Source of the DNA: a virus
Lineage: Duplodnaviria; Caudoviricetes
Length of the DNA: 54,769 bases
IMG/VR virus record: IMGVR_UViG_3300048672_000251
Coordinates: 1-54,769 of that record
Reading direction: 5' to 3' (one strand)
The first letter of the stretch is position 1; every line of letters begins with the position of its first letter. Below are positions 29,031 through 32,620 of the stretch, in pieces. Below the pieces are notes generated by a model. It did not search any database. It was not told the DNA's origin and worked only from the letters and a program-made list of their open reading frames with translations. Made by a program: the position numbers and the translations under genes.

Positions 29031-29401
29031 TAGCCACCCCCAGCACGTGAAGCGATAAATCCTGCAGATATAATGGGCGTGAGTATTGCGACAAGGATAA
29101 ACCACACTAATTTAGCATTCAGCCCCCGCACGCCGTTGATCACATCTTGGTTGGCTGCGTTCTGCTCGCGGATGGCTGCTATCTGCGCCGTGTGGGCTTT
29201 CTGCTCTGTTTTAATGTCGGTGATGTCAGTGGCTGAACGCTCGTGGCGCTCGATGTACTTATTGAGGCTGATAGTTAAGTCAGTGAGGGATTCGGTCAGT
29301 TGCTTCTGCCCGTCAATCATTTGCCGGGTCGACTGGCCAATCAGCGCAATCTCGCGCTCGTGCTGGTCCAGACGGTTCTGTACGCTTGTCAGATCGCTCA
29401 T
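29030..29401 (-). CDS. Coiled-coil protein with C-terminal TM (XhlA/holin-like architecture)
   Basis: Heptad-rich body followed by LVWFILVAILTPIISAGFIA. Confidence 0.7.
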   Translation of the reverse strand: MSDLTSVQNRLDQHEREIALIGQSTRQMIDGQKQLTESLTDLTISLNKYIERHERSATDITDIKTEQKAHTAQIAAIREQNAANQDVINGVRGLNAKLVWFILVAILTPIISAGFIASRAGGG

Positions 29402-29510
29402 GCCGTTTAATCTCTATCAGTGCTTTAATTACAATGATGCCGATTATAGCGTTTACCAGTGCTAGTACGCAAATAAGGGTTATTGTAATTTGAGATTCGG
29501 ACACCGCCAC
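29313..29510 (-). CDS. Small single-TM protein overlapping both neighbours
   Basis: ITITLICVLALVNAIIGIIVI; GGGAG SD near the GTG starts. Confidence 0.4.
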   Translation of the reverse strand: MAVSESQITITLICVLALVNAIIGIIVIKALIEIKRHERSDKRTEPSGPARARDCADWPVDPAND

Positions 29511-29910
29511 TCCCTAAAACGGCAAACAGTAAATCAAGTGGTATTGCTATTTCCTGCCGCCATTTATGCCACTGATAAAATCTGTGGATATCAATAACCT
29601 GATCGAACAGCATCAGGCCGTTACATATCAAACTACTGGCAATTATAGCCGCATAAAGTCCATAAAAGTTGTGATATTTTACTGATAAATAAATACAGAG
29701 TATTAAAAACGTGAGGTCGATGGCAGATTGCTTGATGTACACCATGTACACGTTGATAGATTGATTGGTATCCAACGGTGCTGACCGCAGATAAACAGAC
29801 GCCAAAAACACTGCGTAGTAGCCGAGAATTAACAGACAGAGGTTTACGCCCCTGCCCGTTTTCAGCCACAACGCGGCCAGAATTAGCAGCGCTAACTCAT
29901 TTGTCATCAT
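29425..29910 (-). CDS. Polytopic membrane protein (4-5 TM)
   Basis: Several hydrophobic segments; AT-rich codon usage. Confidence 0.7.
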   Translation of the reverse strand: MMTNELALLILAALWLKTGRGVNLCLLILGYYAVFLASVYLRSAPLDTNQSINVYMVYIKQSAIDLTFLILCIYLSVKYHNFYGLYAAIIASSLICNGLMLFDQVIDIHRFYQWHKWRQEIAIPLDLLFAVLGSGGVRISNYNNPYLRTSTGKRYNRHHCN

Positions 29911-29974
29911 CTGGCTTCGGCGGCTGGCTATCAGGCTGAACTGGTGGCTTTACCGGGGTTTCTTGTTCTGGCAT
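29897..29974 (-). CDS. 25-aa Pro-rich peptide MPEQETPVKPPVQPDSQPPKPDDDK
   Basis: AAGGA RBS; upstream TTGATG-16-TAATCT promoter with TG extension; overlaps the start of the membrane gene. Confidence 0.55.
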   Translation of the reverse strand: MPEQETPVKPPVQPDSQPPKPDDDK

Positions 29975-30229
29975 TGGTACGGTCCTTAGGTTAGTTATCA
30001 GCTCAGATAGATTACCAGAGTAACCGACAGCATCAAACTTATTTTTACGCCGGCTGGCTCGCGTTCGGCATCTGTCACGACATCTCACATGATTGGCGCT
30101 GGTAATAGGCCCGGACAACAGCGTAGAAGCAATGGCGCTCAAGTATTGGATGAAAGAGTACGCCGAACATGGTGATAAGGTGCTGGAAGTCGATACGGCT
30201 GTTCCAATTGCTTTAGGAGCGCCAGGCTG

Positions 30230-30283
30230 ATGGACTACTTACCGCCACAACCAAGTTACCCGCCGCCGGATGACGACGATTAG
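30230..30283 (+). CDS. 17-aa Pro/Asp peptide MDYLPPQPSYPPPDDDD
   Basis: TAGGAG RBS and a terminator immediately downstream. Confidence 0.35.
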   Translation: MDYLPPQPSYPPPDDDD

Positions 30284-30296
30284 TGGCGGTATTCAG

Positions 30297-30325
30297 AGCG
30301 GTCAGTGATGGCCGCTTTTTTATTT
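30297..30325 (+). terminator. Intrinsic terminator (possibly bidirectional)
   Basis: AGCGGTCA-GTGA-TGGCCGCT followed by TTTTTATTT. Confidence 0.75.
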
Positions 30326-30388
30326 GGTCGGTGCGGTAGGCGTGATCTGCGCCCCAAACGCAGCGATCAGCCATTGACCCAGACACCG
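30325..30388 (-). tRNA. tRNA-Pro(TGG)-like element lacking the T arm (64 nt, encoded CCA)
   Basis: Acceptor CGGTGT/GCACCG plus ACCA; D arm GGTC-AATGGCT-GATC; anticodon arm CTGCG-TTTGGGG-CGCAG; only 12 nt where the variable loop and T arm should be, with no TTC. Confidence 0.75.
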
Positions 30389-30395
30389 GAATTGT

Positions 30396-30750
30396 AATGA
30401 GCTGGCCGGTGCTTAACTCCGGCTTCGTCTGTAGGTTTACCCGCAACCAGACTGGACGCTCCAACGCCTTACGGCGCAGCGGCCCTCCCAAGGTGGATAT
30501 GCGACCCAGCGCGTTAGCTCGCGCATTCAGCTCATTGGTTTTGGTGTCTGACCGGACGATCCTGCAAGAGACTGTTTTAATCAACCAAACACCAAACCAA
30601 TAAACTGGGCGGTATCTCTACCGCGGTAAGCCGCCATTACAGCGGGAAGTGCATAACAACCTCCGATTATCTGACCGTCTCTTACTTGGCTGACGGTGTG
30701 GCCGCACTGTGTAAGAAAAGCCCCGTTACTCTGCAATTCGCAGCGGGGCG
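30396..30750 (-). ncRNA. Cluster of structured non-coding RNA elements
   Basis: 9-bp closing stem AATGAGCTG/CAGCTCATT around a multibranch domain; 20-bp stem with four G-U pairs on the minus strand; GNRA-capped hairpins (GAGA, GTAA). Confidence 0.65.
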
Positions 30751-30784
30751 GTCTGCTCTGATGCGTTTTAAATATATTGGTTGA

Positions 30785-31273
30785 CTACTCGCCTGTCAAG
30801 TAATTATTTTCAGCTGCCCACGCTAACGCAGCGGATTTACCTTTCAGCTTCGATGGGTTCACCGGGCCGAGACCTTCCACAACAACGTTGTACCAGCCCA
30901 TACCGAGGTTTTCCAATGTGGCGGGGATGCCGGCGGCTTCAGGTGCTGTTACGGCTTCAGGTGCTACTGCGGCTGGCTCCGTTACCACTGCGGCTGGCTC
31001 CGTTACCACTGCGGCTGGCTCCGTTACCACTGCGGCTGGCTCCGTTACCACTGCGGCTGGCTCCGTTACCACTGCGGCTGGCTCGTCCACATTACCATCG
31101 AGCGTGTGGCGGATTTGGCGCGCATTCCACAGACGCGAAACCATGTGCTGACCAATAGCCATGTGACGCCAGTTAAACTCGTCGCCTGGTTTAAAAATCT
31201 GTGCGCCGTACTGAAATTCCACAATTGCGTACAGCGGCTTTGATAAATCTAAGTCCTCAAATTTGTATGTCAT
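30785..31273 (-). CDS. Hypothetical (likely virion-associated) protein with EPAAVVT repeat linker
   Basis: GGAG RBS; follows the MCP; two globular ends joined by the repeat. Confidence 0.75.
   Translation of the reverse strand: MTYKFEDLDLSKPLYAIVEFQYGAQIFKPGDEFNWRHMAIGQHMVSRLWNARQIRHTLDGNVDEPAAVVTEPAAVVTEPAAVVTEPAAVVTEPAAVVTEPAAVAPEAVTAPEAAGIPATLENLGMGWYNVVVEGLGPVNPSKLKGKSAALAWAAENNYLTGE
30966..31084. repeat. Perfect 21-bp tandem repeat (about 5.7 copies)
   Basis: Unit ACTGCGGCTGGCTCCGTTACC. Confidence 0.96.
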
Positions 31274-31300
31274 AGCGGTTCTCCGGTTAATTGACTATCG

Positions 31301-31642: not shown

Positions 31643-32620
31643 TTAGACCAGTGTGCGGAAGTACGCGCCTAAATCTGCGCTGACTTTCTTCTGGTCGTAG
31701 GCCAGATCCAGTTCAACGCGGTCAGAGTTTAAATGCTCCATGCGGAAGCGTTTAACGCGCACGCCTTCGTTATTACCTAACAGACCGCGCCAGCTGAACA
31801 CATAACCAGCTGATGGTGCCATCAGTGATGGTGTGGTCGCTGAGTAAGTCAGCAGTGCGCCGCCTTTGATAACAAAGTCGTTGCTTGCCGCTGCGCCTTC
31901 TTTGGCGTTATTGATAACTGCGCCAGATACGACGATCCGGGCAACACCAAACACACGCGCTAAGTCTGCGTCAGTGACCACAACAGCGCCTGGTGACGTT
32001 TGGCCGTACTTCAGACGGTCGATAATGGACGGGTTAGTGTCCAGCGCATCGCGCACGTCTTGAGCCAGAGTCAGCGTGTTAGGCCGGAAACCAGTCAGTT
32101 TGTGGATAGCAGAAGTAGCTGCTTTAATCTGTGCAACTGGATCAGACGCTGAGTTCGTCCACTTCAGAACCTGAGAGCCAGTAGGACCAGACGCCACACC
32201 TTCATAATCCAATGACCATACTGACTGCGCCATGAATTTCTGGGCGAACGTTACTTCACGCTGGATCAACGACTGACCAATCAGGAACTGCGTTGCGGCA
32301 GTGTCGAGGTCTAACGGGTCGTCAGCGTTTGCACGGATTTGGTCGTCAATATCTTTGTGCAGGCTGTAAACCTGACAAGAATAGTTATCGGTGTTGATAC
32401 CAAAGCCTGAGCCAGCCGATTCAGTACCCGGCGCACGTGGGCGGATATCGTTACGGTGCATGTCGGCTTTGTCGTAGATGAAATACAGGTCGCTCTTAGA
32501 TTCGACCGGCACCATCGGGAAAACCTGACCAGCTGCAAACATGTTCGCTTGCTGAATAAACGCAATTGAAATGTTGGTAAGCGGGCGGTTAACGTGAACT
32601 TGCGAACTTGTTGGTTTCAT
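31643..32620 (-). CDS. Major capsid protein
   Basis: HVNRPLTNISIA, VFP.VPV...SDLY..Y, RAPGTES, PSAGYVFSW; follows scaffold and decoration genes. Confidence 0.92.
   Translation of the reverse strand: MKPTSSQVHVNRPLTNISIAFIQQANMFAAGQVFPMVPVESKSDLYFIYDKADMHRNDIRPRAPGTESAGSGFGINTDNYSCQVYSLHKDIDDQIRANADDPLDLDTAATQFLIGQSLIQREVTFAQKFMAQSVWSLDYEGVASGPTGSQVLKWTNSASDPVAQIKAATSAIHKLTGFRPNTLTLAQDVRDALDTNPSIIDRLKYGQTSPGAVVVTDADLARVFGVARIVVSGAVINNAKEGAAASNDFVIKGGALLTYSATTPSLMAPSAGYVFSWRGLLGNNEGVRVKRFRMEHLNSDRVELDLAYDQKKVSADLGAYFRTLV

Follow-up and report, generated by a model that had tools for sequence, protein, structure and literature searches.

A structured RNA of 141 nucleotides (nt), here called domain D, is encoded on the minus strand at positions 30396-30536 of the genome of a freshwater phage, IMG/VR record IMGVR_UViG_3300048672_000251, which was analysed over its whole length of 54,769 bp (completeness estimate 95%) and is referred to below as the window. 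D belongs to a large family of RNAs, carried by phages and prophages, that annotation has so far missed, and by its architecture this family appears to be a new and widespread sister group of STnc100/PasD, a known family of prophage small RNAs (sRNAs). Around D, the stretch from about 30765 to about 30390 would be read on the minus strand as one transcription unit, a modular non-coding RNA (ncRNA) inserted in the manner of a moron between the head genes and those of the head-tail connector, with D as its core and a product that acts in trans after processing; to this fuller reading we give a modest preference, somewhat above an even chance. If it is right, the superfamily gains a concrete structural model made up of a frame, a loop-loop lock, an exchangeable core and a competing upstream hairpin, and the orphan sRNA STnc100/PasD becomes linked to a much wider set of RNAs.

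In the window, D is closed by helix P1 (30528-30536 with 30396-30404), all nine pairs of which are Watson-Crick. The 5' strand of P1 is followed by an AAU linker and hairpin P2 (30509-30524), then by an inner helix (UGGG.CGC with GCG.UCCA), P3 (30465-30476, with a GUAA loop), P4 (30427-30452, with a conserved 16-nt loop) and finally P5 (30405-30423), which abuts the 3' strand of P1. Relatives were found by searches with a Klebsiella phage spacer and then with other copies, and they share a frame of P1 (7-9 bp), AAU and P2 (4-5 bp, usually GCGC-AGGCUGAU-GCGC) on the 5' side and of A-A/U-G and P5 (5 bp, usually GCCGG-AGAUCAGCA-CCGGC) leading directly into the P1 3' strand on the other. The core between these two parts is variable in length, and whole copies of D measure 94-226 nt.

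Covariation in these homologues is extensive. Across 19 aligned sequences, 94.7% of the 342 cells of the frame are paired and 12 of its 18 pairs have changed on both sides, while none of 500 column shuffles scored as high and sliding the partners by 1-3 columns left 27.5-52% of the cells paired. P1 occurs as GUUGUGGUG/CACCACAAC, as AAUGAGCUG/CAGCUCAUU in the window and as AUGAAGAUG/CAUCUGCAU in phage AH02 (8/9 paired), and the window helix differs from the common one at six of nine positions with every pair kept. The shorter P1 of PAJU2 (GAGUG/CACUC) is only partly paired in the fixed register. Furthermore, the loops of P2 and P5 form a helix of six bases (consensus GCUGAU with AUCAGC), in which 91.2% of 114 cells are paired and three of the six pairs have changed on both sides (slid controls, 12.8-62.3%), with two double changes in DS8, one in MK54 and one in the copy on a P1-like plasmid. 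The corresponding window bases, GCUAAC (30513-30518) and GUUA[A]GC (30411-30417), give six pairs by eye if one A is bulged, including two compensatory pairs relative to the consensus; the fixed register counts only four of the six.

Membership of the window copy was assessed with a covariance model, R1, built from 16 relatives with the window and its closer relative, the viral contig L067, left out. R1 matches 30396-30536 on the minus strand with 58 bits (E 6.2e-13) over model positions 1-130 of 130, and this is its sole match on either strand of the 54,769 bp. A first-pass annotation, made from the letters of the window alone, had proposed a 141-nt domain closed by AATGAGCTG/CAGCTCATT, and the independent model arrives at the same coordinates. 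L067 scores 71.5 bits, and there is no match in the closest sequenced genome (G001) or in two loci, FO1a and SKML-39, that carry only a neighbouring module discussed below. A weak match in a capsid-related locus (L024, 26.3 bits) has no P5 and overlaps the end of an open reading frame (ORF), and was taken as chance.

L067 is related to the whole unit, with 80.6% identity over 324 nt, and the homology runs from about 30712, just past the U-run of the first hairpin, to the end of D at 30396, where it stops. It was recovered by exact-pattern scans, in which real loci made up 1/1, 1/7 and 1/12 of the hits in viral contigs and 1/60 in genome contigs, the rest being chance; the genomic hit, L082, is identical to L067 over 621 nt and represents the same element binned in a metagenome-assembled genome. 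BLAST of window positions 29400-31300 gave no match in E. coli (Escherichia coli) genomes and, among phages, matched only one (Klebsiella phage VLCpiS13b, 2 records) over 68 nt, in an unannotated spacer immediately 5' of tRNA-Arg and tRNA-Met. Of the RNA cluster proposed in the first-pass annotation, only the 141-nt domain is widely conserved; the upstream hairpins are common to L067 alone.

The frame is widely distributed. It is matched in 152 records of phages and, among 5426 complete E. coli genomes, in 965, where it occupies 1096 places, 260 of them on plasmids. None of the matches inspected lies under an annotated RNA feature, and no Rfam 15 family reaches its gathering score at any D copy scanned. 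If this reading is right, annotation lacks a class of RNA genes that is abundant in phages and prophages: the frame is matched in roughly a sixth of the complete E. coli genomes, and also in P1-like plasmids, in Stx-type and P22-like phages, and in phages of Klebsiella, Aeromonas, Erwinia and Pseudomonas.

Three settings recur. In E. coli prophages D stands alone downstream of the repressor gene, with what look by eye like a promoter of its own and a terminator-like hairpin with a U-run. A position in the late leader is seen in HK620, ES2, PAJU2 and phiEt88, where D follows Q, and in AH02, where it follows NinG; these late-leader copies sit between Q/pR' and the lysis genes, and the HK620 copy falls between the annotated pR'/qut and the late terminator. 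In Klebsiella siphophages such as VLCpiS13b, in a P1-like plasmid and in phiEt88, it lies a few to about 12 bases 5' of a tRNA gene. The immunity region of one E. coli O157:H7 prophage (L163) that carries a stand-alone D copy also holds, on the opposite strand and upstream of the repressor genes, C4 antisense RNA (81.4 bits) and isrK (62.2 bits) within 271-459.

While the frame is constant, the core is exchangeable. Klebsiella phages that are otherwise near-identical carry at least four unrelated cores in one frame. The type-1 core is shared by the window, L067, VLCpiS13b and, more distantly, MK54; RNAalifold on these four sequences predicts 38 pairs, 17 of them with a compensatory change, and the core contains a GNRA-type hairpin and a hairpin with the conserved loop GUUGCGGGUAAAC. 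A second core type occurs in Cronobacter phage ES2, a P1-like E. coli plasmid and two Pseudomonas phages, with its inner helix in four different sequences. Similar replacement is seen close to the window itself in public sequencing runs, from which the comparisons are of contigs only. In a relative's contig from run X4, 30716-30898 and 30325-30406 are kept and 269 other letters replace 30407-30715, and in a second contig, from the probable source sample, the same frame ends are joined by a 32-letter core. If read correctly, core exchange between near-identical phages resembles diversifying selection, which is typical of phage-host or phage-phage conflict.

Conservation of the RNA modules relative to their surroundings is suggested by a further contig, from run X2, which covers 30491-30937 with 21 differences. 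At least 17 of these lie in 30740-30937 and at most four in the 249 nt of RNA modules covered, so that the modules have changed much less than the promoter region and the last part of the upstream gene. A candidate small ORF in the D core, ending in the P3 loop, was rejected since by eye its stop falls in different frames in the window and VLCpiS13b. A P1-like plasmid of E. coli O104:H4 carries two D copies with different cores in one tRNA cluster (L159 938-1039 and 1207-1334; order Asn, Tyr, Thr, D, D, Ser); P1, P2 and P5 of the first copy differ from those of the second by compensatory changes.

Immediately upstream of D lies a long hairpin, H_L (30528-30607, minus; -31 kcal/mol, z-score -5.16, 0/200 shuffles as good), which extends a 20-bp stem that had been noticed at 30534-30601. 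Its base pairs CAGUUUAUUGG with CCAAUGAGCUG over 11 nt, including two G-U pairs, and contains the 5' strand of P1, which thus serves as the 3' base of the upstream hairpin; H_L and P1 are consequently mutually exclusive. L067 has two long hairpins with the same 11-nt base as H_L and unrelated interiors (z -9.25 and -6.55). When the upstream flank is folded together with the P1 5' strand, all nine strand bases pair upstream in the window, L067 and AH02, so that two unrelated P1 sequences, that of the window and L067 and that of AH02, both come with an upstream competitor; with the Klebsiella type included, the competitor helix is kept with three different P1 sequences. At least six of the nine bases pair upstream in 14 of 20 loci. 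A control based on the longest complementary run was uninformative for the G/U-rich common P1 (43-200 of 200 shuffles as good), and the argument for competition draws on the minimum-energy folds and the window, L067 and AH02 cases only. Since H_L wins in the minimum-energy fold and yet P1 covaries strongly, we infer two states, a precursor in which H_L holds the strand and a mature form in which P1 is closed.

Strand-specific stability argues for RNA on the minus strand rather than for a DNA structure or a gene, as the first-pass annotation had held. Every helix that it named was found on that strand where it had been placed, those within D being GCGCG/CGCGC, CGCC-GTAA-GGCG, GTCTG/CAGAC and GCCGG/CCGGC. 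The whole 355 nt (30396-30750) has a folding energy of -139.1 kcal/mol for the minus strand (z -2.80, 0/100 shuffles as good) and of -120.4 kcal/mol for the plus strand (z -1.19, 13/100), so folding better than shuffled sequence is borne out for the minus strand, though one module alone, 30608-30712, does not exceed its shuffles (51/200). Likewise, the G-U wobble argument for the strand holds, because the long stem is far stabler on the minus strand than on the plus strand (z -5.16 against -1.91, the latter with 7/200 shuffles as good). Several modules do lie head to tail in one likely transcription unit, with a sigma70-like promoter that scores 11/12 just upstream.

[quoted passage not shown] Rfam 15 gave no match at gathering score in the window, ribozymes, riboswitches, the phi29 packaging RNA (pRNA) and large ornate phage RNAs included, which agrees with the earlier remark that no hammerhead core is present; between 29900 and 30850 at E<=10 there were five non-credible matches, the best being P27 (20.2 bits against a cut-off of 50). 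The locus had been put forward as an undescribed system, and this stands in so far as Rfam 15 and all annotations seen have missed it, but the architecture matches that of the described STnc100/PasD.

The likeness to STnc100 (RF02076) came from the ES2 copy of D, which that model matches with 23.8 bits, below its cut-off of 47; this was the sole sub-threshold family match among the other copies scanned. In the alignment P1, AAU, P2, P5, the P1 3' strand and a downstream terminator are all in register. In STnc100, as in D, the 5' strand of the closing helix ends in ...UGGUG and is followed by an AAU linker and a first hairpin with an 8-nt loop, the centre varies between copies, and the last hairpin, which has a ...GCA loop, lies directly against the 3' strand (CACCA...). 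The window copy has the same helix order as STnc100 by eye, not by score. One O157:H7 chromosome has 18 STnc100 matches, 11 of them over the cut-off, and two O157:H7 copies combine the same frame with different centres. The habitats overlap as well, with STnc100 described in the late region of lambdoid prophages near Q and downstream of stx2. The families differ in their P2 and P5 sequences, STnc100 has no obvious 6-bp complementarity between the loops (by eye only), and D, unlike STnc100, also occurs in virulent phages, beside tRNA genes and beside a tmRNA-like module. Judged on these features, D appears to share the architecture of STnc100 and yet not to be a member of RF02076.

A recent preprint describes PasD and STnc100 as prophage-encoded sRNAs of Salmonella and pathogenic E. 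coli whose function has not been elucidated, holds that the two share an ancestor while their seeds differ, and reports that Pas sRNAs are abundant and Hfq-bound in RIL-seq (RNA interactions mapped through ligation and sequencing) (bioRxiv 10.64898/2026.05.13.724894). One STnc100 copy lies 75 nt downstream of stx2, with a role that is said to 'remain[s] unclear' (PMC12370729). A literature search found no description of the D motifs, though sequences of D type may already be present in the PasD/STnc100 preprint, among its tables and alignments.

A working model can be put together from these features. The unit would be transcribed from its own promoter or by read-through of the terminator-like hairpin T0 at its 5' end, and H_L, forming first, would sequester the 5' strand of P1. 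Long duplexes of the size of H_L are of the kind cut by RNase III, and in phage early transcripts and rRNA stalks imperfect duplexes of about 20-30 bp punctuate polycistronic RNA. H_L and its two counterparts in L067 resemble such processing hairpins and rRNA-flanking stalks in that they separate modules; they differ in that the base of H_L additionally competes with a helix of the downstream domain, and cleavage here is only putative. Endonucleolytic cuts of the RNase III type in the long duplex, together with cuts in the 3' flank, would free D, which could then close P1 and lock its frame. The frame would act as a nuclease-resistant chassis that defines the ends, and the variable core, sitting where a tRNA has its anticodon arm, would be the effector that pairs with or sequesters host or phage RNAs or proteins in trans. 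D is found in many unrelated phages, at places where accessory genes and tRNAs are typically carried. A processed, stable, trans-acting RNA, the best-supported mechanism, fits the stand-alone copies between promoter and terminator, the picture of different seeds on the same fold in the account of PasD/STnc100, and the turnover of cores between close relatives that would be expected for a function in conflict. The more specific functions first suggested for the locus, namely packaging RNA, anti-defence decoy or antitoxin mimic, are guesses.

Several results weigh against this model of a processed, trans-acting RNA. STnc100 has no match in the window at its gathering score (47 bits) and none between 29900 and 30850 at E<=10, and R1 in turn detects 0/6 STnc100 loci at E<=10; as neither model detects the members of the other family, the transfer of an Hfq-dependent sRNA function to D is weak. 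In addition, the scan listed no minus-strand terminator-like site downstream of 30396, unlike in STnc100 and the E. coli prophage copies, so that an Hfq-type 3' end is not evident. The minimum-energy fold of the whole stretch forms H_L and leaves P1 open. Upstream of H_L, a module that is not significantly structured and has a strong ribosome-binding-like site followed by a 5-codon ORF finds no explanation in the model. The closest sequenced genome, G001, whose capsid is 87% identical and which is collinear with the window, has no trace of the locus, and none of 55 capsid-related loci has a credible D copy. The RNA would on this evidence be dispensable for this type of phage, and the locus an accessory insertion in a variable slot. 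Finally, of 24 public sequencing runs with the locus, none is on record as RNA, those labelled RNA-Seq being wastewater libraries flagged as probably DNA.

Among the alternatives, mimicry of tRNA or tmRNA deserves the fullest hearing, although we regard it as rather unlikely. In this reading D would have the acceptor, T-arm and elbow shape of a tRNA, would be handled by enzymes of tRNA processing and would affect translation or defence directed at tRNAs. It could be a decoy for host factors that bind tRNA-like shapes (for example anticodon nucleases, SmpB and RNase P), or else their cofactor, and together with an adjoining tag template perhaps an alternative trans-translation RNA. Its helix order is that of a tRNA or of the tRNA-like domain of tmRNA, with P1 followed by a hairpin at the place of the D-arm, the core at that of the anticodon arm and a last hairpin that abuts the P1 3' strand, as if stacked on the closing helix, and the loop-loop contact joins the first and last hairpins as the D-loop and T-loop do in tRNA. 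The copies a few to about 12 bases 5' of tRNA genes or inside clusters (VLCpiS13b, the P1-like plasmid, phiEt88) suit this idea, as does the position directly 3' of a tmRNA-like module in 8 of 19 aligned copies, and one frame of the upstream module of the window reads ...YALPAVMAA.... The resemblance does not extend to detail. ARAGORN finds no tRNA or tmRNA gene in the window or at any D copy scanned, and the Rfam tRNA (RF00005) and tmRNA models find nothing between 29900 and 30850 at E<=10. An encoded CCA after P1 is lacking in all copies seen, and among the aligned copies none has the G-U identity pair as its third P1 pair. Moreover, the loops are unlike D- and T-loops, that of P5 lacking a T-loop-like consensus, a core of 60-190 nt replaces the anticodon arm, and the tag-like frame of the window and L067 has no stop after ...MAA. 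The species 1 and 2 RNAs of phage T4 are stable, structured RNAs that are transcribed together with the tRNAs of a phage cluster and set free by the enzymes that process these; D resembles them by functional analogy only.

A cis-acting leader is also unlikely. It would have the promoter, T0 and the mutually exclusive helices act as attenuator- or riboswitch-like control of the downstream ORF at 29425-29910 and the connector genes. A terminator-like hairpin about 15 nt past a strong promoter-like site is what such a leader would show, three lineages keep the alternative pairing although its sequences differ, and the D of lambdoid phages falls between two terminators of the late leader under Q control. 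However, E. coli prophages carry D as stand-alone units (promoter and terminator judged by eye), and in Klebsiella phages D is followed by tRNA genes rather than by mRNAs. The competitor strand lies upstream of the domain and not in a downstream expression platform, many unrelated cores would be unexpected for a ligand-binding aptamer, and no Rfam riboswitch matches.

The tmRNA-like module invites a stronger proposal. Directly 5' of D in Klebsiella phages, DS8, KP6 and HK620 lies a conserved, unannotated module of about 280 nt (L002 2650-2925; L145-L150; L153-L157, the HK620 locus L157 at about 950-1200; none in the window). Following AUAAAU it has a frame of 10 codons that reads A-N-[D/E]-x-x-x-L-[A/M]-[V/A]-A and then stops in 11 of 11 loci, with synonymous differences and with UAA or UGA as stop; the variants are ANEEVYLAVA, ANEEMYLAVA, ANEDRFLMAA, ANDDVVLMAA, ANDNTFLAVA, ANDNVFLAVA and ANDNAYLAVA. 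By eye, a hairpin loop holds the stop, and pairings that resemble pseudoknots occur on either side of the frame. Matches of the module to tmRNA models are weak and below threshold (beta_tmRNA E 1.2e-6; tmRNA_permuted 24-32 bits), ARAGORN reports no tmRNA there, and a canonical tRNA-like domain was not seen. A 433-nt Klebsiella unit has matches in 827 phage records, mostly in the tag region and including Felixounavirus (Felix O1-like), Ackermannviridae, P1 and HK620, with no RNA annotation among the matches listed. A literature search for phage tag peptides or tmRNA-like RNAs found no description, and three phage genome papers mention tmRNA only via the ARAGORN reference. It is conceivable, though quite unlikely in our judgement, that in phages of enterobacteria and neighbouring groups D and the tag template form a split, phage-specified RNA for trans-translation or ribosome rescue, or a mimic that subverts the host's system, in which D is a tRNA-shaped chassis, locked by the loop-loop helix, with interchangeable effectors and the upstream module of the window a decayed template. 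By its profile, the tag module is absent from the window, L067 and G001 (E at best 0.21-0.34; the window best, 0.23, lies outside the locus). The two elements also occur apart, with a tag and no D in the fetched loci of FO1a and SKML-39 and many D copies without a tag.

Self-assembly of the RNA is very unlikely. The phi29 packaging RNA and large phage-associated RNAs are multimeric, and the P2 and P5 loops of D could pair between molecules to build rings or assemblies in the virion or the packaging motor. The covarying six-base complementarity fits intermolecular pairing as well as intramolecular pairing, two short stems at one junction would make a 6-bp intramolecular kiss sterically demanding, and in the window phage the locus lies among head genes. 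Against this, the Rfam models of pRNA and of the large ornate phage RNAs give no match, other copies lie in prophage immunity regions, late leaders and plasmids and not near packaging genes, and the absence of the locus from the closest relative argues that it is not an essential part of packaging.

A role at the DNA level, as a recombination site, a single-stranded-DNA hairpin site or an origin, is highly improbable. The same 11-nt inverted-repeat ends surround variable interiors, in tandem in L067, and the replacement breakpoints in the relative coincide with module borders (30406/30407 and 30715/30716). Nevertheless, it is the G-U pairs that make one strand far better, G-U pairs occur as intermediates of the covariation, the D copies of E. 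coli prophages are set between a promoter-like and a terminator-like sequence, and no recombinase or replication gene is adjacent; single-stranded DNA of the minus strand is a remote possibility.

That the locus codes for protein is extremely improbable. The first-pass annotation had seen no credible ORF, and although mechanical ORFs of 123 amino acids (30213-30584, minus), 51 amino acids (30581-30736, minus) and 68 amino acids (30397-30603, plus) do overlap the region, none matches a family in Pfam or PHROGs (a sequence search for their homologues was not run). A 5-codon mini-ORF preceded by GGAGG, 5 nt 5' of its ATG, is conserved in L067 (MHFPL against MHFTL). Opposed to a coding function are the copy lengths of 94-226 nt with unrelated cores and with insertions and deletions that are not multiples of three, the lack in L067 of any ORF of at least 70 amino acids on the RNA strand across D, and the compensatory nature of the substitutions in the helices. 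A retron, a type III antitoxin array, a CRISPR-like repeat and an integron attC were rejected, as the surroundings hold neither a reverse transcriptase nor a tandem repeat, cas gene or integrase, and Rfam lends them no support.

The elements upstream of H_L are less widely shared than D. A sigma70-like promoter (TTGACA, 17 nt, TATATT; 11/12 in a consensus scan) lies at 30771-30799 on the minus strand, and its predicted start falls about 15 nt before the first hairpin. In our reading, a substitution at 30774 in the X2 contig would change the -10 hexamer to TAGATT, as in the Klebsiella phage units; this is deduced and not taken from a printed sequence, and X2 has neighbouring changes and an inserted base there as well. 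T0 (30713-30749, minus) is a terminator-like hairpin with a U-run (-16.5 kcal/mol, z -2.83, 1/200 shuffles), in which a C-to-U change at 30740 in X2 retains the pair as G-U. In L067 the conserved modules are preceded by a hairpin and U-run of different sequence, after which comes an extra long hairpin, and HK620 and ES2 have a hairpin analogous to T0 after pR'/qut.

Between T0 and H_L lies module M (30608-30712, minus), which is conserved in L067 and which on its own folds no better than shuffled sequence (z -0.75, 51/200). It comprises hairpins at 30692-30697 with 30674-30679 (ACCGUC/GACGGU), at 30631-30645 and at 30609-30624 (GCGGTA-GAGA-TACCGC, with a GAGA loop), the last being the sole minus-strand terminator-like site listed and lying upstream of D. 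Compared with L067, the GAGA hairpin shows one compensatory pair (GCGGUA/UACCGC against GCGGCA/UGCCGC) and the ACCGUC/GACGGU hairpin a change from U-A to U-G. A Shine-Dalgarno-like GGAGG (30660-30664) precedes the mini-ORF MHFPL (30637-30654, ATG-CAC-TTC-CCG-CTG-TAA), whose stop is placed in the loop of the small hairpin, and the arrangement is kept in L067. In another frame the window module gives ...YALPAVMAAY..., similar to how a tmRNA tag ends but without a stop. A long-range pairing of M with the core of D in the minimum-energy fold (GCGGCC/GGCCGC) was rejected, as it is not conserved in phages with other cores.

On the 3' side of D, the flank at about 30325-30390 (minus, z -1.54) had been called a tRNA-like element, a description that fails: ARAGORN reports no gene, Rfam gives no tRNA at E<=10, and the homology with L067 ends at 30396, so that this tail is not common to both. 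It is most likely a degenerate or unrelated hairpin region. The stretch 30325-30406 is nevertheless retained in the contig from run X4, and in one relative's contig 140 other letters replace 29982-30324. An intrinsic-terminator-like hairpin of 10 pairs with a T-run, found by the scan at 30295-30318 on the plus strand only, is likely to mark the 3' limit of the ncRNA locus. Together with a small plus-strand ORF without family support (30093-30230; 45 amino acids from TTG, 32 from an inner ATG), it suggests convergent transcription towards the ncRNA unit.

Judged by its genes, the surrounding genome is that of a siphovirus that looks lytic. It encodes its own DNA polymerase, primase, helicase, Gp2.5-like single-strand-binding protein and exonuclease for replication, a terminase, portal, major head protein (31643-32620, minus), tape measure and tail as structural components, and lysis genes; no integrase was found among the 53 ORFs scanned in the window. 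The ncRNA locus lies on the coding strand of the structural genes, and from gene content the head/connector interval appears to be a moron hotspot. Directly downstream of the locus, and ahead of the connector genes, an ORF for a multi-pass membrane protein of 161 amino acids (29425-29910, minus; GC content 0.38-0.40) has no family match, and in G001 two different membrane-protein ORFs occupy the same slot. The upstream neighbour, 3' of the capsid gene, encodes a repeat-rich protein of 162 amino acids (30785-31273, minus) with five tandem EPAAVVT repeats and a sixth variant unit, whose sole PHROG match is a family of unknown function; it is possibly a fast-evolving repeat linker in a head-decoration protein, and its homologue in G001 (L064 2-328) has PVVTD repeats instead.

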